DNA of 64,000 nt from Candidatus Babeliales bacterium (GTDB lineage Bacteria > Babelota > Babeliae > Babelales > JBFXEV01), in the NCBI GenBank assembly GCA_050179755.1, contig JBFXEV010000001.1, positions 9,994-73,993 on the forward strand. The letters are read 5' to 3'. The position numbers and the translations under genes are program-made. Positions 1-9,632 of this stretch are shown here, one piece after another. The notes beneath the pieces were generated by a model. That model saw nothing but the letters and a program-made list of their open reading frames with translations, did not search any database and was not told where the DNA came from. How positions within the stretch are numbered: position 1 is the first letter of the stretch; every line of letters starts with the position of its first letter.

Positions 1-3000
1 CATTCTACAATTACTGAAAGTACTGGAGTTAAGTCACACGTTAATGTGCAATCAAAGTCAAGATTGGTGATTGTTGTATAAATATCACCAAGGATATTCC
101 AAGTAACTCTAAAGTTGCTTTGTGTTTGCTCGCAGCAATCTGCAATTGCCGTAAGAACCGGCGTTAAATCACAATCTAAGCTGCATGTTAGTTTAAGGTT
201 ATTAATAAGTGACTGTGTTTCTTCACAACACTCAATAATGATCGACCATGTATGCTCAAAATTACTTTGTGTTTGTTCACAGCATTCTACAATTGCTGAA
301 AGCACTGGAGTTAAGTCACAATCTAAGCTACATGTTAGTTTAAGATTATTAATAAGTGACTGTGTTTCTTCACAACACTCAATAATGATCGACCATGTAT
401 GCTCAAAATTACTTTGTGTTTGTTCACAGCATTCTACAATTGCTGAAAGCACTGGAGTTAAGTCACAATCTAAGCTACATGTTAGTTTAAGATTATTAAT
501 AAGTGACTGTGTTTCTTCACAACACTCAATAATGATCGACCATGTATGCTCAAAATTACTTTGTGTTTGTTCACAGCATTCTACAATTGCTGAAAGCACT
601 GGAGTTAAATCACAATCTAAGCTGCATGTTAGTTTAAGGTTATTAATAAGTGATTGTGTTTCTTCACAACACTCAATAATGAGCGACCATGTATGCTCAA
701 AATTGCTTTGTGTTTGTTCACAGCAGTCATCAACAAGACAGAAAATAGCTTCTAGACCATCTGCTACGGTGCAGAATGTGGTGCATGTAGGATTAAACGC
801 TCTTACTGGACCACACCCGCTATCTGGGCAACATGCAAACTCGCCTAATTTACAGTTAATTTCAAACAATAGTGAGTGCGTTTGTTGACAACATTCTTCA
901 ATTGCTGAAAGTACTGGAGTCAAGTCACACGATAATGTGCAATCACAGTTCAAATGTTCAATTAATGACCACGTGAATTCAAAGTTACTTTGTGTTTGCT
1001 CACAACACTCAATAATAAGTGATTGAGTTTCTCTGCAACACTCTATAATTAACGATTGTGTTTCTTTGCAGCATTCTAGAATGATTGTTTGTGTATCATA
1101 GATATCATCTGCAAGGTCATCACAACATTCGGTAATTGTTTCTTTAAGATCTCTCACTACGCAACACAATATTGTTTGCGTATCAAATATATCATCTGCA
1201 AGATCATCACAACATTGCGTTACTGTTTCAATAAGTTCATTGAGTAAGCTAAGCGTTTGTTCACAACATGCAGTTAATGTTTGCTTGATATCAGCAAGGA
1301 TTGACCACGTGATTTCAAAGTCTCTTTCAAGTGTGGTAAGCACATCAGTTAGATCACACTGCAAGCTACAGCTCACATTTAAGTGCTCAATAAGTGACCA
1401 GGTAAATTCAAAGTTACTTTGTGTTTGCTCACAACATTCAGTAATTAGCGATTGTGTTTGCTCACAACATGCTTCAATGCGTGACTGTGTTTGCTCACAA
1501 CATGCTTCAATGAGGGACCATGTGCGTATAAAGTTACTTCCTGTTGAATCACAACATTGAGTTACTTGGCAGAAGATTTCAGATAATCCGTCTGAAACAT
1601 TATCAAACTTTGGACATCTTTCATCATTACAATCACAATCAACACACTCGCAATTATCACATTGACATGATGCATTATCGCAATCATTACAATCTTTGAA
1701 ATCACCAAGTTTGCACTCTAAGAGGCATTCTAGGTCATTCACTTTTTGCACTAATACGTCACAGCATGTGCCAGTAACCGTGCCACCACAGCTAATGCTT
1801 CTAATTAAATCAGCTAAGAAAGCAGTGTCTTCAAATTGTTTACAATAAACTAAATTTAAAGCTTCAAAGAGTGAAAGCGTATTAGGCTCCCAAACACAAT
1901 CTTCTTGAGCCCTATTTCTAAGCACAGATGATCCACAAGTAAAACCATCTAGTTTACAAATAATGATACTTGTAGATTGAAGAATTTCATTGTTTACGGT
2001 GGTATTATCATTAAGAAGTGACCAGGTAATTACAAAGTTCTCATCAACATGCGCAGTTTGATCTGCTATTGCATCTAATATTTGATTACAGCACACTGAG
2101 CCTGTTTGAATACTGGCAATAAGTGACCTTGTTAAATCAAACTCATTTTCAATAAGTACTGTTTGTTCATCAATTGCATTAAGTATTTCATCACAGCATA
2201 CTGAGCCTGTTTGAATCGCTGTAATCAATGACCACGTAGTTTCAAAGTTATCTTGAATTGTTGCACAACACGCAGAAAGTGATGCTGCAAGTTCATCTGC
2301 GCGTTCATTAATAAGCTCTTCTTGCTCATCAAATTGCTCATCAAGATGTGCCGTTTGCTGTGCAATTGCATCAAGTATTTGATTGCAGCATGCTGAACCA
2401 GTTTGAATATTTTCAATCAAACTCCAGGTAATTTCAAAGTCTTCTCGTACACTTTGCTCTAATGCATCAATTGCATCTGTTAGTTCTTCACAACAGGCAC
2501 TCACTGTTGCTTCAATCTCAAATTGCTTGCAATAAATTAAGCGATCTGCTTCATGTTCATTTGGAAATCTATAATCTGGATTACACGGATCCGTGATTGC
2601 TCGAACTTGGTCTGCTGTAAGACAATCGGTATAAGGACCTTGTTTTGCAAGAATACAATCTAATTTTGCAATAGTTTCTGCACAGCAATTTGATTGAGTT
2701 ACAACTGCATCTAAAATATCTTTAAGCGCTTGAGAAATGCTGGTATCTGGCCCAAGGATTTCACATGCATCCCCAAGTATGCCTAACACTGAATCATCAC
2801 AAACAGCATCTTCTACAGTACCAATACGTTTTTTAATAATCAACAATAATTTAATAATTTGGCATATGCCTGCCGCAACTGAATCACAGCCATCATCTCT
2901 AAATGTTTCAAGAATAGGCCCTACCGGAGCTCCTGGAGCAAACGGATCTGATGGTCTTGGAGCTTTTGCTTGAGGGCGGTTAGTACGCATAGTATTTGCG

Positions 3001-3344
3001 TTAACCATGTCCTCATGCTTTGCAATCGCATAGCTCAGTAACTCAGGCATTGCTTCCATAACGTCTGCAACCAACACCGTTGTATGTCCGTTTACAATTC
3101 TTTCATAACAACGCATCAAAGCTTGCGACGGCATAGCATCACAATCCATCGATGCAGCTTTTTGCACCATTTCTATTATTAATCTATCAAGACCAGCTTC
3201 TTGCGACTCCATATATTCAAGCTGCATCTTACTATCACGCATTGACCTTTCAACAGCCAGCACGGTTGGTGCTACGCTATTGAACACCATACAGGCAAAT
3301 AAGCATTTGCCTAGTGTGCGTTTGAACCTTTTAATCACTTTCAT
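1..3344 (-). CDS. Giant secreted Cys-rich coiled-coil repeat protein, 3' end beyond the window (>=1114 aa); absent from the ORF track
   Basis: ATG at 3344 preceded by GAGGAG. Manual translation gives MKVIKRFKRTLGKCLFACMVFNSVAPTVLA (signal-peptide-like), then CC-doublet repeats such as ECCEQTQSNFEHTWSLII and IECCEETQSLI. The same frame still reads ...CDLTPVLSVIVE at base 3, with no stop found. Confidence 0.9.
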   Translation of the reverse strand, partial: MKVIKRFKRTLGKCLFACMVFNSVAPTVLAVERSMRDSKMQLEYMESQEAGLDRLIIEMVQKAASMDCDAMPSQALMRCYERIVNGHTTVLVADVMEAMPELLSYAIAKHEDMVNANTMRTNRPQAKAPRPSDPFAPGAPVGPILETFRDDGCDSVAAGICQIIKLLLIIKKRIGTVEDAVCDDSVLGILGDACEILGPDTSISQALKDILDAVVTQSNCCAETIAKLDCILAKQGPYTDCLTADQVRAITDPCNPDYRFPNEHEADRLIYCKQFEIEATVSACCEELTDAIDALEQSVREDFEITWSLIENIQTGSACCNQILDAIAQQTAHLDEQFDEQEELINERADELAASLSACCATIQDNFETTWSLITAIQTGSVCCDEILNAIDEQTVLIENEFDLTRSLIASIQTGSVCCNQILDAIADQTAHVDENFVITWSLLNDNTTVNNEILQSTSIIICKLDGFTCGSSVLRNRAQEDCVWEPNTLSLFEALNLVYCKQFEDTAFLADLIRSISCGGTVTGTCCDVLVQKVNDLECLLECKLGDFKDCNDCDNASCQCDNCECVDCDCNDERCPKFDNVSDGLSEIFCQVTQCCDSTGSNFIRTWSLIEACCEQTQSRIEACCEQTQSLITECCEQTQSNFEFTWSLIEHLNVSCSLQCDLTDVLTTLERDFEITWSILADIKQTLTACCEQTLSLLNELIETVTQCCDDLADDIFDTQTILCCVVRDLKETITECCDDLADDIYDTQTIILECCKETQSLIIECCRETQSLIIECCEQTQSNFEFTWSLIEHLNCDCTLSCDLTPVLSAIEECCQQTHSLLFEINCKLGEFACCPDSGCGPVRAFNPTCTTFCTVADGLEAIFCLVDDCCEQTQSNFEHTWSLIIECCEETQSLINNLKLTCSLDCDLTPVLSAIVECCEQTQSNFEHTWSIIIECCEETQSLINNLKLTCSLDCDLTPVLSAIVECCEQTQSNFEHTWSIIIECCEETQSLINNLKLTCSLDCDLTPVLSAIVECCEQTQSNFEHTWSIIIECCEETQSLINNLKLTCSLDCDLTPVLTAIADCCEQTQSNFRVTWNILGDIYTTITNLDFDCTLTCDLTPVLSVIVE
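111..724. repeat. Intragenic tandem repeat, 147-bp unit (49 aa), about 4 near-identical copies
   Basis: caaaatt(a/g)ctttgtg recurs at 257, 404, 551 and 698, with a degenerate copy at about 110. The minus-strand unit is ECCEQTQSNFEHTWSIIIECCEETQSLINNLKLTCSLDCDLTPVLSAIV. Confidence 0.95.
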
Positions 3345-3402
3345 ACAGTCTCCTCTTTGGGCTACCACTACATTAAACAACCACAACCAACTACCTTTAT
3401 AG

Positions 3403-3432
3403 TTGAAAGGCTACAATCCTTGTAGCCTTCAA
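3403..3432. other. Intergenic stem-loop between the barrel gene and the Cys-rich gene
   Basis: ttgaaaggctacaa-tcc-ttgtagccttcaa inverted repeat. It has no strong U tract, so it may be an mRNA-processing or stabilising hairpin, or a weak terminator. Confidence 0.5.
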
Positions 3433-3444
3433 TCATATAATCCT

Positions 3445-5238
3445 TTAAAAGAACATGCCAAAGCCAAGATACCAATCACTGTCGCGTTGGATATTCTTAC
3501 CAGCAAACGTATGCAACCAACCTCCAAATATTTCCCAACTACATGTTTTGTGGAACAATTCTACTTTAATGCGATGACCATGACGATTTGTATCATTTTC
3601 CAGAACGTCAGGATCAAGCGTTGCTGTTTGACCAATCAGGTTTAAAGCAGTTATTTGCTCAAAACGTATTTTATCTTTTGATTTAAAATATGGCTGATAC
3701 CCAATATCAACTCCAGAACAATTTTTCGCACACGGTACCACAAACGTAAAGTCAAAGTTACCAAGGAAATAATTCCATGATACTTTTGCATCCACTGTAG
3801 GGCCTATGTTACGAATTCTAGAACCCGTAAATGCAGCAGCAACTCGTTCTGTACGGCTAAACACGTGATAGAACTGAACATCACCTTTAAATGCAAACCA
3901 ATCACATGGCTGCGTTCCCATTTGCACGCCAAGTTTCCATTCAAAGTGACGGTTATTGCCAAGAGGTTGTTGCAATAGAAGACCAGGGTTACTTACTCGT
4001 TTGCCTGTTGGGAACCGAATACCAGTAATACCTTCAACATACCAATCACCATGGCATTCGCTGCAGAAATTTCTACGTGCATAGAAATCTAAATCAAAAT
4101 CACCCGCACCTGTTAAATGCACCGTATTAAATGTAATACCGCGCTCGCGCAAGAAATCAATTGGTGTAACAAGTGTTTGCGCAATTTGGCTAATTTCATC
4201 TTCAATCCAAGGAGTTACAGCACCACGAATATCTGCCGCAATAACTGAAATATCGCCATCATCATCTACTGTTGGAACGACCCATAATGTACGTTGATTA
4301 TCTCTATTAAATGCTAGATCTCCATAATCAGTAGCTGCATTAAAGCGAGCCCTCTGACCTACAGCCAATTCACCATTACCTGGTAAAAATGGCAATTGGT
4401 TAACTTGTTGTTGCGTCATAGAAAATGGTAACGCAGGCGTTTGACCAAATTCTACGGCAACCACATATACGGGATTGTTTTGCAAATCGTCAATTACTTT
4501 ATCATTAATTGCAACGTGCTCTGTTATAGGCCGACCATTTAAACCCGCTTTTGGATAATCAAAGCGCACCATCGCATCGTTAGGGCCCTCAGGATTAACA
4601 ACTTGCGCAAGTGCAGTAAGACAATCTAATCGATAGGCAAAAGAGAGCGGCACTGTATCAAAACCCAGCACAGGCGCAGTAGTCGTTATAATACGCTCAG
4701 CTGCTGGGTTATTAATCAAACACCTATCAACTGGATTAATCAGAGTACTCGTCGTAACTGATTCAAGAAGATCGCAACAATTTTCAAGCGAAACCGTTTG
4801 TGTAATAAATGGAATATTTGTACGAATACCCACATCCCACGTGCCGCAACACATACGGTGATTAATATTAAAACCAAACATTGCACCACTTGCATCGTAA
4901 TTAAAACGTGGTGAAAGCACAATGCTAAACTCTGCTGGCAACGGCGTACCTACCGGAAACAATTCGCTCAAAGCAAAATTGTCAGCGCCAAAATATAACC
5001 CTGCAAGGGTTTCTCTGTTTGTTCCACTGCTCAAAGCATCGGAGGCTTGTCTATGAAATGCACCAGCCCATACATCAAAATCCCAGCATTTATCTAAGTT
5101 CTCACATATATAGGGATAATGCTCAAAGCGTTGAAATCCATTTCTAAATGGAAGAGGAGCACGCATTTCACGCGCGCTCACCGATAGAATTTGAATCAAT
5201 GCCATTATGGCAATCAGACTCAGTATTTGTTTCTTCAT
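3445..5238 (-). CDS. Putative outer-membrane beta-barrel protein (Cys-containing)
   Basis: Signal peptide MKKQILSLIAIMALIQILSVSA (ATG 5238 with an AAGGA SD; the track starts at 5244). Alternating amphipathic strands and a C-terminal BAM-type signature WYLGFGMFF. Confidence 0.7.
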   Translation of the reverse strand: MKKQILSLIAIMALIQILSVSAREMRAPLPFRNGFQRFEHYPYICENLDKCWDFDVWAGAFHRQASDALSSGTNRETLAGLYFGADNFALSELFPVGTPLPAEFSIVLSPRFNYDASGAMFGFNINHRMCCGTWDVGIRTNIPFITQTVSLENCCDLLESVTTSTLINPVDRCLINNPAAERIITTTAPVLGFDTVPLSFAYRLDCLTALAQVVNPEGPNDAMVRFDYPKAGLNGRPITEHVAINDKVIDDLQNNPVYVVAVEFGQTPALPFSMTQQQVNQLPFLPGNGELAVGQRARFNAATDYGDLAFNRDNQRTLWVVPTVDDDGDISVIAADIRGAVTPWIEDEISQIAQTLVTPIDFLRERGITFNTVHLTGAGDFDLDFYARRNFCSECHGDWYVEGITGIRFPTGKRVSNPGLLLQQPLGNNRHFEWKLGVQMGTQPCDWFAFKGDVQFYHVFSRTERVAAAFTGSRIRNIGPTVDAKVSWNYFLGNFDFTFVVPCAKNCSGVDIGYQPYFKSKDKIRFEQITALNLIGQTATLDPDVLENDTNRHGHRIKVELFHKTCSWEIFGGWLHTFAGKNIQRDSDWYLGFGMFF

Positions 5239-5294
5239 ATGCATCCTTTAAATTTTACTTCCTACAAACCTACTACCCAAAAAGGGGGGTGCGG

Positions 5295-8200
5295 CTAAGC
5301 CACACCCATTATTTCTATCGCACTTATAACTTGGCCAGTGCTATCAGTAACAGCTATATTAACTGCTCCCCTACGCACTGAACGATCATAATCAGTATCA
5401 ATACCACTCGTATTGATTATAAGTTCGCGTAGTTGTCTATTAATTACTGTATTACTAGTCACAAAACCAAGTGTAGGTATAGTAACTCGATTAAGAGCAA
5501 TGGTAGATTTAGGAGCCAAATATGCATCATATGTTTGAACTCTTAAATATTGATACATAGTAGATGGCGTAAAGCCAGCAGCAGTTTGAGATCCGTTCTG
5601 CGGAGGCGTTATATTTAAGAATGCATCAGTAACTGCCCCATCTCTTAATAGATCTTTAGAAGCAAACAAGCCTACCAGTGAATTGCCTGTAATTGAACGC
5701 CCAGTCGTATTTTCTACAATAATAGGGAATGTTGCAAGTTGACATCCATCAACAAGTGCAAGATTACCACCACCTCTAATGATTGAGTTATTCACATTAA
5801 AGCTAAATCCATAGCTTTGCGCAGGCCCAAAAGCCATCAAGGAAGCAAGCGAATTATCTCCACTAAATATTTGATTATGAGTAAATGTTCCTTGAGGAAT
5901 ACTTATTGAGACGTTACCCACATTGCTCAAACATTGATACGTATATTCATTTGGCACGTTACCAAATACCGATACACCACCAATACCAAATAACACGAGG
6001 CCTTGACGTCTAATTTGGAATTCAGCACCAACGCCAGCAATAACCAAACTAAAGTTAATAGTAGCATCTTCAATATCTGCACGATTACCAACTTGGAACG
6101 TACCACCAAGATCATTAATATCGCCAACATTAAATGTAGCTTGGTCAGTAAGTGTCCATACAATATCAGTAAAGTTAGTACATTCAGGATCAGTCTCTAT
6201 TCCCAAGAACGTATCATTTGGTAACAATAAACTTGAACCTTCATTCATAGTCACTGCACCATTACCAATGAATTTAACCAAACGATCTTCTATAGCACCT
6301 GGTACCAAGTTTTGTAAGATATCAGTATCAAACACACGTTCAAAATTAATTGACATGGTATCAGTGAAACGCACATACGTACGATTATCTACAAATGGCT
6401 CTATTCCATTTGGCACACTTGAAAGAAGCAACTTAGCACCTGGCTCAAATACCAAACGCATGTTACCGCCAAATTCAACCACCTGATTTGGTCCTCTAAA
6501 TTCAGAAAGATCAAGCACGCCATTTGATTTAATGCGGAATTCTTTTGCGTCATCTGAGAAGAATACTAATGTTTGTGTCCCATCCGCACCAAAGTCTGGC
6601 CCCGGCATAATATGGCATACGTTATCAATAATAATATCTTCATTTAATTCAACAACACCATCACCTTTTGCAATAACGGTAATACCATTAATACCAAGTT
6701 TAATATTAGCATCGTTTGAATCATAATTACGTTTTGCAGAACCAAGCCCCACGCGGCCCCAATTATCTAAAACAATAGTTCCCATTGCAGCTTCTGCTGA
6801 ATTGAATCCGTTTAAGAATACAAGCTCGCGCACAAAACCACCTGGTCCTGCTTCAGATGAACCTATTTGAAGCGTAATTTGATCACCAAGGCGTGAACGT
6901 TTGACTTGCAATTGATCTACGGTGCCAAGTATTGTTGGTACAAGTGTTAAGTTCGCTTCAGTTACCGGCGGCACACGGCATGCAAGCGGCGTCATTTTAG
7001 GATCATATGGCACAAATGCTGTGCAGTCAGTTATAACTTGCATCCAATCTATGGTAAAGTCAGAGAAAAGCTCTCCCTGTTTTACTAATATATTGTCAAC
7101 CGTCATAGTTGGTCGCCAATCAGTTACACCAACTCGAGAATCAAAGAATATTTCTGTCTCAGGTAAAATAACTTGGCCGTTGCCACTGCGCACTACCATG
7201 GTAGAAATGTTGGCACGATTACGGTCTGCATTTTCAAACACACCGTTAGTATCCACAAAAATAGCACCTTGACCAAGAGTTCCTGTTAATTCTGGTAAGT
7301 GTGCCGAACCGCCATGTGTTTCAAACGAGAAGAACGCACCATCTATAATGACTGTTGGTTCAGTTGCCGGTGTAAATGGCGGAAGCCCAGGAGCAGTACC
7401 TATAGAAATATTGCTTTCATTTCCTAAGAAAATAGTTTGAATTGAGTTTTGATCGACAGGCGCCGTTGCCGTTACAGATACCGTAAAGCACGGATCGTTT
7501 GGTGCTGTATCAAGGCGCAACACGTGTGGTGTTGGTGCAAATTGATTTGATGTTTGGAACACATCTAAATGCGAGTTGTGATCAACAACTTGACCACCTC
7601 TGCATGAACGATCGCCATGATCAGTTCCTAATATTACAATACGGCCATTACCACGATCTACACAGAATCCGTTACTATAGAAGCGTAAGAAGCTTTCATT
7701 TCCTACATCAGGAGCTTCAAAGAAATTTGGCACTTGAATATCAACGCCCGTAAATCCTGCACTTTCATGGAATCGAATAATTGAGTTATACAGCGCAATA
7801 GTTGGGCGAGGCGCATCAGTTTTACATGCAACATGGAATTCACCACCAATATAGGTAGGCTCTGAGAATATGCGCGGATCACCTCTATCCAGATCATCAC
7901 GCTCAAGCACATGGTGGTTGTCATCAGTATGTACTAATGATGCATTACGAATTTCAAATCTATTATTAATTAAGAATACTGCTTTATTATAACGCAAGAA
8001 CTCGCCTTCAAAGTTCGTATTATGCGTAAGTGCGGGGAATACTAAATTCTCAGGGCATGAAGTTTCTGCAGCAATAATTACTGGGCAACCAGCATTTACT
8101 ACTTCATCAGATAATATGCGGATAGCATTACTGTTGGCAGAATCACCGTTAACAACTAAAATTCCTTCTACATCTAATACCACGTTGCCAGCACCACAAG

Positions 8201-9632
8201 CCGCAAGCACATCAAAACTGCCTAACGGATTTATAATAAAGCCTCCAGCTTCATTCACTTCACCACAACGATCAACCCCAGATCTAAAATAAAGGCCAGA
8301 ACAACCGAGCATGTTAATTTGTGCATGCACACAATCAGCTGGGTTTAAACAACTTGCATGATTTACACCATCCACAAAAAATGCTGAGGCGTTACGCGTT
8401 TTTACTAAGCATCCTGCCGCTCGTGTAAATTGCACGCAATCACAACCACCATCAGTATTGCTGCAGACGTTGCATATTGGAATATTAAGATCAAGTGATG
8501 CAATGAGTTCATCAATATCATAATCTTCATCATTAATATCCACCAAGCACGATGCTCGTGTTGCTGCTTTTTCTTGAGATCTCACTGGTATGAGCGTGCA
8601 AGTAGACACACAGCCACAATCAAGTTCACTTCCAAGGCACGTATTAATTGCCGCGCCAACGTAATCTAGATAACTCAAATTATCAATAGTTAAAATACCG
8701 TTAGCACCTAATACAAAACCAGTCAGATGGCCGGTGAATGAACCATCGCAGAATGGTTCTGCACGTAAATGTGGAAATACTGTATTCAAATTAATTACTT
8801 GCAAGTTGGCAACAAAATCATCCAAGTCACTTCCACTATTAAAGATAGTAAAGAGCGCCGAGCGACCACCAAGTGATGCAAAATCAACATCTTCATTGCT
8901 GAATTCGCCATTGGCATTGATATTTGCAAAATGTCCAGAAATATCAATGCCTGCTGCATCTAGCACACGTAGTTTCATAGAACCTGCGGGCACTGCATTT
9001 GCTGGACTAAACTGAAGAGAGCCTATAGCTAAATTATTATTAGGATCATTTGCATTTGCAAGATAGGTCATGAGCGAATCTCTACCTACCAGAACTTCCA
9101 CATGCTCGGCAGAACTATCATCTGCACGTGTGAATGTTACTGTGGAACCTTGCGTAGAATTATTCATCACTACAAAGAAATTTGTTCCTGCAGTTTGAGA
9201 TAATTCATCAGAGGCAAAAGCAACGCGATGACCGTTACCTAAAATAAATACTAATTGACCTTCACCTGAAAAGCTAATAAGTAATCGTGTTATTTTATCA
9301 GTAGAACCAAGAAAAGTAAGATCAGCACTTGTTAAATCAAAAAAGACCGTTTGGCCTGCTGCTGCAGAAATAAAAATCTGCCCTGGCTTGGGGCTATTTG
9401 AGCTCATAACGCTGGCATTAGAAAGCACTGTTGCCGTTACATTACGAGTAACAGCCGCAACATGTACTGGCCCTATTGCTACGTTGGCACCAGAAATAGT
9501 AAAATCATTATCTATATTATCAGTAATCGTCCCACCATTCCAATTACCAGCTTGTAATTGTACTATGCAGGTGAGTATACCTCCGAAAATAATACAACGC
9601 ATTATATTGGAAGGAATTAAAAAGCTTCTCAT
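5295..9632 (-). CDS. Large secreted beta-rich (beta-solenoid/adhesin-like) protein, 1445 aa
   Basis: N-terminal signal peptide, G/N/V/I/F/T-rich beta-strand pattern and a Cys-rich insert near aa 330-480. No enzyme motif recognised. Confidence 0.6.
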   Translation of the reverse strand: MRSFLIPSNIMRCIIFGGILTCIVQLQAGNWNGGTITDNIDNDFTISGANVAIGPVHVAAVTRNVTATVLSNASVMSSNSPKPGQIFISAAAGQTVFFDLTSADLTFLGSTDKITRLLISFSGEGQLVFILGNGHRVAFASDELSQTAGTNFFVVMNNSTQGSTVTFTRADDSSAEHVEVLVGRDSLMTYLANANDPNNNLAIGSLQFSPANAVPAGSMKLRVLDAAGIDISGHFANINANGEFSNEDVDFASLGGRSALFTIFNSGSDLDDFVANLQVINLNTVFPHLRAEPFCDGSFTGHLTGFVLGANGILTIDNLSYLDYVGAAINTCLGSELDCGCVSTCTLIPVRSQEKAATRASCLVDINDEDYDIDELIASLDLNIPICNVCSNTDGGCDCVQFTRAAGCLVKTRNASAFFVDGVNHASCLNPADCVHAQINMLGCSGLYFRSGVDRCGEVNEAGGFIINPLGSFDVLAACGAGNVVLDVEGILVVNGDSANSNAIRILSDEVVNAGCPVIIAAETSCPENLVFPALTHNTNFEGEFLRYNKAVFLINNRFEIRNASLVHTDDNHHVLERDDLDRGDPRIFSEPTYIGGEFHVACKTDAPRPTIALYNSIIRFHESAGFTGVDIQVPNFFEAPDVGNESFLRFYSNGFCVDRGNGRIVILGTDHGDRSCRGGQVVDHNSHLDVFQTSNQFAPTPHVLRLDTAPNDPCFTVSVTATAPVDQNSIQTIFLGNESNISIGTAPGLPPFTPATEPTVIIDGAFFSFETHGGSAHLPELTGTLGQGAIFVDTNGVFENADRNRANISTMVVRSGNGQVILPETEIFFDSRVGVTDWRPTMTVDNILVKQGELFSDFTIDWMQVITDCTAFVPYDPKMTPLACRVPPVTEANLTLVPTILGTVDQLQVKRSRLGDQITLQIGSSEAGPGGFVRELVFLNGFNSAEAAMGTIVLDNWGRVGLGSAKRNYDSNDANIKLGINGITVIAKGDGVVELNEDIIIDNVCHIMPGPDFGADGTQTLVFFSDDAKEFRIKSNGVLDLSEFRGPNQVVEFGGNMRLVFEPGAKLLLSSVPNGIEPFVDNRTYVRFTDTMSINFERVFDTDILQNLVPGAIEDRLVKFIGNGAVTMNEGSSLLLPNDTFLGIETDPECTNFTDIVWTLTDQATFNVGDINDLGGTFQVGNRADIEDATINFSLVIAGVGAEFQIRRQGLVLFGIGGVSVFGNVPNEYTYQCLSNVGNVSISIPQGTFTHNQIFSGDNSLASLMAFGPAQSYGFSFNVNNSIIRGGGNLALVDGCQLATFPIIVENTTGRSITGNSLVGLFASKDLLRDGAVTDAFLNITPPQNGSQTAAGFTPSTMYQYLRVQTYDAYLAPKSTIALNRVTIPTLGFVTSNTVINRQLRELIINTSGIDTDYDRSVRRGAVNIAVTDSTGQVISAIEIMGVA

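Follow-up and report, generated by a model that had tools for sequence, protein, structure and literature searches.

Babeliales (Dependentiae) are obligate parasites of protists, and we know of no account of how they attach to and enter their hosts. The window analysed here, meaning the whole stretch of 64,000 nucleotides read from a Candidatus Babeliales bacterium (G000:C1:9994-73993, from a single contig of 1,525,295 bp), opens on a minus-strand reading frame whose translation is dense in vicinal cysteine pairs, and the question that this locus raises is what such a protein is and what its cysteines do. We conclude that the gene very probably encodes an exported, modular surface fibre built as base, rod and head. 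Taken as a whole, a base-rod-head fibre with an oligomeric, disulfide-stapled rod is the best explanation that we can offer, and we hold this fuller account tentatively.

The frame runs from the ATG at 3344 to the window edge over 1114 codons without a stop, as an earlier reading of the letters alone (hereafter the sequence-only reading) had claimed, and the window part of the protein (P0001, 1114 residues) contains 107 Cys and 29 Cys-Cys pairs, for a Cys content of 9.6% overall and 13% across residues 560-1114. That reading also held that the gene had been missed by the open reading frame (ORF) track. The ORF listing does show the frame only if open-ended frames are allowed (3..3386, with the 3' end open), and the track probably overlooked it because the frame is open-ended at the window edge, but public protein collections already contain P0001 as a called, unnamed protein. 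The N-terminus (MKVIKRFKRTLGK-CLFACMVFNSVAPTVLA-VE) combines a basic n-region, a hydrophobic core and a small-x-small site, as read by us rather than by a predictor, and the same leader pattern is found at the N-terminus of most full-length relatives, in agreement with the signal peptide proposed earlier. Behind it follow a conserved N-terminal domain (~180 aa), a long alpha-helical rod, which two small Cys-knot inserts and short breaks of DCDLTP type divide, and a C-terminal beta-helix head. The parts of the gene, all on the minus strand, are:

3-3344, minus strand: N-terminal 1114 codons of the fibre gene (P0001), from the stop-free translation
3255-3344, minus strand: Sec-type signal peptide, residues 1 to ~30, with n/h/c regions recognised by eye and relatives alike
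2700-3227, minus strand: conserved N-terminal domain, residues ~40-215, the family hallmark and the best-matching stretch in many relatives
1965-2699, minus strand: rod segment I, residues 216-460, in 35-40-aa units SACC..ILDAI...NFE.TWSLI..IQTGS
1557-1766, minus strand: Cys-knot insert 1, residues 527-596, CKLGDF...many C...FDNVSDGLSEIFC
834-1556, minus strand: rod segment II, residues 597-837, runs of 11-aa ECCEQTQSLI and 18-aa units
726-833, minus strand: Cys-knot insert 2, residues 838-873, a sequence reading
3-725, minus strand: rod segment III, residues 874-1114, four 49-aa units, then the first 90-aa unit, which continues past the assembly gap
L001:8158-9981, minus strand: continuation of the fibre gene including its stop (P0002, 607 residues), same repeat in another frame

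The 11-aa, 18-aa and linker modules from which the sequence-only reading had built the rod are all present in the translation, with repeat periods recovered by Tandem Repeats Finder. The 11-aa units (IEACCEQTQSR/IEACCEQTQSL, IIECCRETQSL) give 33-bp periods at 990-1084 and 1419-1514 (2.4-2.9 copies, 77-85% matches); the 18-aa unit is ECCEQTQSNFEHTWS[LI]II, also written as ECCEQTQSNFEHTWSLI units; and the linker LTCSLDCDLTPVLSAI sits within a 147-bp repeat at 111-725 (4.2 copies, 95% matches). Rod length changes via near-identical tandem DNA repeats. Within the 147-bp array, units 2 and 3 are identical in DNA, and unit 1 is set apart from both by 5 nucleotide changes that fall in synonymous codons and by 1 that falls in a non-synonymous codon. 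This points to a recent duplication, or to gene conversion, in which the protein sequence was conserved. The insert-1 module recurs in P0005 and P0013 and at the C-terminus of a paralog in the same genome.

Although the frame is open to the window edge, as had been claimed, no single continuous frame reaches far beyond it. A run of 10 N lies directly outside the window (G000:C1:9984-9993) and interrupts the fibre gene: a straight read-through of the gap meets a stop 28 codons later, and in another frame past the gap the repeat goes on stop-free for 607 aa (P0002, the part past the gap, L001:8161-9981). Both flanks are parts of one repeat, for which Tandem Repeats Finder gives 2.3 copies of 270 bp at 98% matches, and the stretch just past the gap is 95% identical to P0001 residues 1072-1114, from which we take the gap to be an unresolved tandem array and the change of frame, therefore, to be an artefact of its arbitrary length. 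Extending the contig in search of the C-terminus, as the sequence-only reading had advised, leads through ~235 further repeat residues into a beta-helix head and then a stop, so that the full protein has at least 1721 residues. Because the gap splits the gene, it appears in public records as two partial proteins, neither of them named. The sequence-only reading mentions neither the head nor the conserved N-terminal domain, the Cys-knot inserts, the gap or a second paralog described below.

The head that follows these ~235 rod residues in P0002 is a right-handed parallel beta-helix (pectate-lyase-like fold), as known from phage tailspikes and from enzymes that act on polysaccharides. P0002 scores 63.3 bits against Pfam PF13229 Beta_helix (cut-off 25.9, 3 stretches) and 36.5 bits against NosD (cut-off 23.6). 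An AlphaFold2 (AF2) model built on a 20-sequence alignment reaches a predicted local distance difference test (pLDDT) above 90 for 242 residues, residues 245-580 being nearly all regular short strands, mostly at pLDDT > 90, and VIA-align superposes it at Z 30-36 and a root mean square deviation (rmsd) of 1.8-3.2 over ~300 residues, with all 50 entries listed at Z >= 30. Among the matches are the AlgE4/AlgE6 epimerase A-modules (AlgE6 at Z 35.6, rmsd 2.1 over 305 residues), phi29 gp12, the Sf6, CBA120 and Dettilon tailspikes, NosD, alginate lyases of family PL6 and PfbA, an adhesin of pneumococcus. Because these structural scores are tied, the fold is certain and the activity uncertain: the head might be a glycan binder, a glycan-cleaving enzyme or something else. 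P0002 ends ~25 residues after the beta-helix. P0002 and 24 other beta-helix representatives share, within their final ~10 residues, a conserved [WYF]-x-N-[IVL] (for example YDNVSAV, FDNISAL, WTNISVN and WANVF), which could have a sorting, capping or assembly role; a C-terminal N-x-S/T sequon was considered as the conserved feature and rejected, being present in 12 of 25 heads against ~27% expected by chance.

An exhaustive HMMER search of 1.84 billion proteins returned 72 representatives of the family at E <= 1e-3, 39 of them at E <= 1e-10, and a word-indexed search of 5.8 billion proteins yielded 5 others, one of them labelled 'hypothetical protein'. The hidden Markov model search of phylum genomes that the sequence-only reading had put forward as a check finds matches at E <= 1e-5 in 14 of 261 genomes, or 13 of 260 once the source genome is set aside, with two candidates scored per genome and copy numbers accordingly lower bounds; all matching genomes fall in one order, scattered over 6 of 21 families. 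Judged by these searches, the family is rare and apparently confined to this order of Dependentiae. Its N-terminal domain (motifs ALMRCYERI, AMPELL.YA and IKKRIGTV.D..C..S.LGILGDAC in alignment A3) has no Pfam, NCBIfam or PDB match by sequence or profile and no usable match in the protein atlas. For the rod, no sequence or profile match in Pfam, NCBIfam or PDB offers an explanation; in PDB, neither P0001 nor P0002 gave a match, and the profile of a 25-sequence alignment (A1) matched only beta-helix proteins, through its head columns. The earlier impression of a protein of no described family therefore stands for both N-domain and rod. No relative of P0001 was found among viral contigs, and in the PHROGs collection P0002 matches 0 families, while P0001 has no more than a weak summed match to a tape-measure family, with 0 stretches. 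Searches of the Dependentiae/Babeliales literature on beta-helix, cysteine-rich or adhesin/surface topics found no paper on the family; in passages of the Chromulinavorax genome paper, the one phrase on the subject is "surface antigens of unknown function", and the paper contains no occurrence of cysteine, adhes-, fibr-, disulfide or coiled (PMC6561590).

The relatives and paralogs indicate at the sequence level that base and rod are kept and heads are exchanged. A domain scan covering 50 of the 72 representatives places Beta_helix after the repeats in 23, including P0022, which is this gene's own C-terminal fragment; two (P0052 and P0055, which also have the CC rod) carry WD40 propellers in addition to Beta_helix. 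The head of the present protein is a plain beta-helix into which no propeller is inserted, and its rod is the longest and the richest in Cys of the copies compared, at 9.6% Cys against 1.0-8.8% in the others. In a genome of the same genus (G121; L018, G121:C1:503000-522000), four tandem paralogs share the leader, N-domain and CC rod and differ in their C-termini. One is an intact 1433-aa ortholog of the same layout with a beta-helix head, and those of 1100 and 443 aa end in a ~250-aa domain without a Pfam match. The remaining one is a frame of at least 1736 aa, in which the CC rod is preceded by a long helical segment rich in His, Lys and Gln; a separate 454-aa Gly-rich ORF follows it in another frame, so that the gene may be split or frameshifted. 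The source genome itself holds a second CC-repeat paralog ~10 kb away, lying across both contig ends (G000:C1:1-1296, minus strand, plus the last ~1.3 kb; L006-L009), with a leader, ~800 aa of CCxxTQSNFEFTWSLI units and a terminal Cys-knot, and no beta-helix. Since both contig ends overlap within the repeats of this paralog, the circular junction of the contig lies in an unresolved repeat.

The head-less paralog, together with a Cys content of 9.6-13%, raises the possibility that the protein does not stand free as a fibre but is a building block of a coat around the extracellular, infectious stage. Its many Cys pairs would then cross-link different molecules by disulfides into a lattice that would be reduced after host entry. 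Precedents for such structures are the cysteine-rich outer-membrane complex of chlamydial elementary bodies and the baculovirus polyhedron envelope (calyx), and Baculo_PEP_C (PF04513) is the only curated family that some rods of the fibre family reach: it matches 9 of the 50 representatives at E <= 1e-5, four of them above the cut-off of 38 bits (P0007 65.4, P0024 54, P0038 44.4 and P0042 44.2 bits). P0001 itself scores 23.6 bits against that 38 and falls outside the family, no match has a single stretch that passes alone, and family rods also gather summed matches to Cullin_Nedd8, TOP_N, DUF5340 and others; because unrelated helical families match likewise and no stretch passes alone, we regard the Baculo_PEP_C matches as probable repeat artefacts. 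A conserved base, a rod of variable length and swappable heads fit a projecting fibre instead, and we consider the coat improbable.

The rod of the fibre is in all likelihood helical. The AF2 monomer of P0001 residues 590-900, built on alignment A1, is all-helical, with helices at model residues 2-69, 77-139, 144-212, 220-247 and 265-310 and breaks at Cys/Asp/Pro linkers. Fourier analysis of hydrophobicity gives a peak at a period of 3.54 for P0001 280-460 (power 168, where the 95th percentile of shuffles is 69), 3.50 for 870-1114 and 3.46 for P0002 1-235; segment 590-870 of P0001 peaks at 3.56 and, as a second peak, at 3.66, the power across rod segments being 161-259 against shuffle 95th percentiles of 66-69; three relatives (P0006, P0007 and P0008) peak at 3.58-3.62, likewise above shuffles. 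The rod thus has the amphipathic signature of a generic alpha-helical coiled coil, a period of 3.5-3.67 maintained over long stretches, and the fibre-like helical repeat block that had been proposed is supported by both the all-alpha model and the observed range of 3.46-3.62.

The register is more particular than the mean period. In 453 windows anchored on isolated CC in other family representatives, with CC at 0/+1, the hydrophobic fractions upstream are 0.90 at -10, 0.75 at -7 and 0.90 at -3, those downstream are 0.66 at +4, 0.95 at +8, 0.73 at +12, 0.84 at +15 and 0.67 at +18, and position +11 is T in 57% of windows. Read from these windows, the register is a heptad and then two hendecads (a-d-e-h), with C-C and then T-W at d/e. 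The 11+7 construction of the sequence-only reading is therefore locally right, in the form of two consecutive hendecads, whereas its 11-residue periodicity does not extend to the rod as a whole, where 3.5-3.6 dominates and 3.66 is secondary (590-870). Because this mixture of heptads and hendecads averages 3.5-3.6, we expect a rod that is nearly straight rather than uniformly right-handed.

The cysteine pairs follow a strict rule of their own. The CC columns of alignment A1 show little or no variation, and in a count anchored on an independent motif, F..TW[ST][IL][LI], with CC scored at -8/-7, the pair is present in 202 of 359 motifs from other representatives and a single Cys in 3; the corresponding numbers for the 25 motifs of the source genome are 20 and 0. 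Independent variation at 57% Cys each would predict a single Cys in about half of the motifs. This both-or-none rule fits an inter-chain ring, since a ring needs the Cys at d to reach the next chain and the Cys at e to receive the previous one. A vicinal dithiol or a metal site would equally need it. The pairs may be metal or redox ligands, or small hydrophobic core residues that suit the d/e layer, rather than staples. Where the pair is lost the rod motif is otherwise unchanged and -8 is L, I or T, showing that the pair is replaceable, as residues of a core might be; yet -7 is then polar (Q, E or T), which plain core packing fails to explain. The oxidising machinery likewise speaks on both sides. 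Profiles for DsbA, DsbB and Thioredoxin_4 match nothing in the genome (96% complete), which speaks for cysteines that are not staples, but a VKOR homologue is present (95.6 bits), so that thiol oxidation outside the cytoplasm is possible, and the export leader would bring the protein to an oxidising compartment. We therefore assign a low probability to pairs that serve only as core residues or ligands. The VKOR homologue is a stand-alone protein of 132 aa (G000:C1:397223-397591; L010 1492-1890, plus strand) and adjoins a DoxX-like membrane protein.

In the 49-aa block the Cys offsets are 9, 27 and 41 within a helix of ~44 residues. By our own geometric reasoning, a tight antiparallel hairpin would leave these cysteines without a facing partner, and a parallel, in-register homomer would bring them together. 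The arrangement that we propose starts from the conserved N-domain as the cell-proximal base, with the variable head as a distal tip that would bind a ligand or cleave a glycan; we chose this orientation because a conserved base, a variable rod and an exchangeable tip follow the logic of phage fibres and fibrillar adhesins. Between them, the rod would be a parallel, in-register homo-oligomer, a trimer being favoured, and we regard the case for a parallel homo-oligomer as evenly balanced. Vicinal Cys at hendecad d/e would then face neighbouring chains and, outside the cell, could close into inter-chain disulfide rings that staple the rod, to open again in the reducing interior of a host cell. 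Such rings along the rod are possible, if on balance doubtful. The full picture, a probably three-stranded, nearly straight parallel coiled coil in which Cys-d bonds to the next chain's Cys-e in dozens of rings over more than 150 nm of a redox-switchable rod, is unlikely to be correct in every part.

Several observations weigh against this arrangement. The AF2 rod model is of low confidence (mean pLDDT 59, predicted template modelling score, pTM, 0.40), and the rod part of the P0002 model reaches a pLDDT of only 33-44. Foldseek with the rod model finds nothing at E <= 0.001 (best E-value 0.02), and its best resemblances are single-chain gp41 5-helix constructs, at a template modelling (TM) score of 0.53-0.66 by target length, as though AF2 had turned the helices back against one another. 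The overall period of 3.5-3.6, not 3.67, argues against a uniform right-handed hendecad coil. Equally good Z-scores for the head go to monomeric enzymes such as AlgE4, and for that reason the head is silent on stoichiometry. The lack of DsbA, DsbB and Thioredoxin_4 counts here too, as does that of any known surface-anchor or outer-membrane secretion signature in P0001 or P0002 (Pfam, NCBIfam), and the gene for a putative outer-membrane barrel beside the fibre gene in the window is unlinked to fibre genes in 5 of 5 relatives. The sequencing runs listed for the gene comprise three DNA runs that contain it in full, which may come from the source sample, and no RNA run; there is no sign that the protein is expressed.

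Because the low-confidence rod model most resembles single-chain up-down bundles, a monomer that folds back on itself is a serious rival. Helices of 45-70 residues would then turn at the DCDLTP-type breaks into an elongated antiparallel bundle of spectrin or apolipoprotein type, with intra-chain disulfides between adjacent helices or none at all, and the fibre would be shorter, thicker and single-chain. The five long helices with short breaks in the AF2 model agree with such a bundle, as do the up-down gp41 matches (non-significant though they are), weak Pfam matches of an ortholog to apolipoprotein-like helical families, and the CC pairs 597/727, 615/711 and 693/769, which would roughly face each other in hairpins of residues 590-800, at about chance level. 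AF2 given one chain, however, often folds it back whatever the true state, and the confidence of this model is low; the Cys offsets of the 49-aa block mismatch in a tight hairpin; and the both-or-none rule is left unexplained, as one Cys per helix would suffice for a contact between two helices. We consider the fold-back rod rather unlikely, and find the multi-chain, stapled rod the more attractive mechanism.

The genes around the fibre gene are consistent in kind with a surface location. Three genes of Big_9, DUF11 and cadherin-like type lie between the two fibre paralogs (L001 1958-8073, minus strand) and form a surface-protein island, the neighbourhood also including an ABC-transporter binding protein; DUF11-type genes likewise follow the fibre genes in G121 (L018 16138-19000). 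Upstream in the window are:

3350-3356, minus strand: Shine-Dalgarno AGAGGAG, with a 5-nt spacer to ATG 3344, from sequence reading
3409-3427, minus strand: 7-bp hairpin GGCTACA/TGTAGCC followed by TTTC, after the stop of the upstream gene, from sequence reading
3445-5244, minus strand: P0003, 599 aa, with a leader and the C-terminal end GFGMFF; no Pfam, NCBIfam or PHROG match
5295-9632, minus strand: P0004, 1445 aa, with a leader; no Pfam, NCBIfam or PHROG match

The hairpin is possibly a weak terminator between the upstream gene and the fibre gene, and a terminator consensus scan does not call it as one. P0003 is a 32%-identical paralog of a putative outer-membrane barrel encoded at G000:C1:722128-723882. 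It was considered as the fibre exporter and set aside: 5 of 5 fibre-bearing relatives have homologues of it, but the distance to the fibre genes is 17 kb at the least and exceeds 400 kb at the most. As the two never adjoin, we claim no dedicated exporter. P0004 is probably another beta-helical surface protein, its protein-atlas leads (0.81-0.83, below the trustworthy range) being clusters of beta-strand-repeat, pertactin and Pmp-like adhesins.

The family probably forms fibres that make contact with a host cell, and swappable heads on a repeat-varied rod are the layout expected of host-range determinants. If the rings form, the fibre would be rigid and resistant to proteases and shear outside the host and would be unzipped by host reductants after uptake, a stapled, redox-switchable fibre without a described bacterial counterpart. 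The paired Cys at hendecad d/e offer a natural test of disulfide-ring closure of da-layers; should such closure occur, protein rods with covalent staples could be designed around the same motif. A search of the hendecad/disulfide coiled-coil literature found no repeated Cys pairs at hendecad d/e along a bacterial rod, and one of the vicinal-cysteine/interchain-disulfide coiled-coil literature gave eukaryotic or engineered cases only, among the matches listed.

Of the known families compared, the protein belongs to one alone, and that through its head, which has the generic beta-helix fold. The tetrabrachion stalk of Staphylothermus marinus, a parallel right-handed four-helix coiled coil of 11-residue repeats to which the sequence-only reading had likened the rod, is a functional analogue only: both are long extracellular rods with hendecad (a-d-e-h) segments that hold domains off the cell, whereas the fibre rod belongs to a bacterium, not an archaeon, alternates hendecads with heptads at a mean of 3.5-3.6 and bears Cys pairs at d/e. 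The 8 Pfam rows obtained for P0001 at E up to 1 include no family of the tetrabrachion kind, and PDB gives no sequence match. The type Vc adhesins YadA, SadA and BadA similarly join a head to a coiled-coil stalk with non-heptad segments and repeat-driven length, but the order is reversed here, with a conserved N-terminus and a C-terminal right-handed beta-helix head; P0001 and P0002 have no match to the YadA anchor, stalk or Hep_Hag families (Pfam, NCBIfam) and fall outside this type, and P0002 has no match to the C-terminal 12-strand barrel of type Va autotransporters in Pfam. The order of N-terminal attachment, neck and C-terminal beta-helix is that of the phage tailspikes and appendages (phi29 gp12, P22, Sf6 and CBA120), on which the fibre head superposes at Z 32-34 over 305-339 residues. 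The fibre gene differs in being cellular, with a Sec leader and a rod of more than 1000 residues, and AlgE4/6 score as high (Z 35-36); tailspike or tail-fibre membership was rejected, given that the head has no PHROG, viral contigs hold no relatives and the neighbours are cellular. For the cysteines, the nearest parallels are the C-terminal Cys-Cys knot of collagen III and the coiled coils of COMP and matrilin, in which adjacent Cys tie parallel chains into a covalent ring. These have one knot at a helix end, whereas the rod of this bacterial fibre carries at least 36 CC pairs along its length, which would make for dozens of knots. With rings of this kind, the fibre would resemble the redox-controlled envelope of chlamydial elementary bodies, although it comes from another phylum and rests on a different protein architecture.

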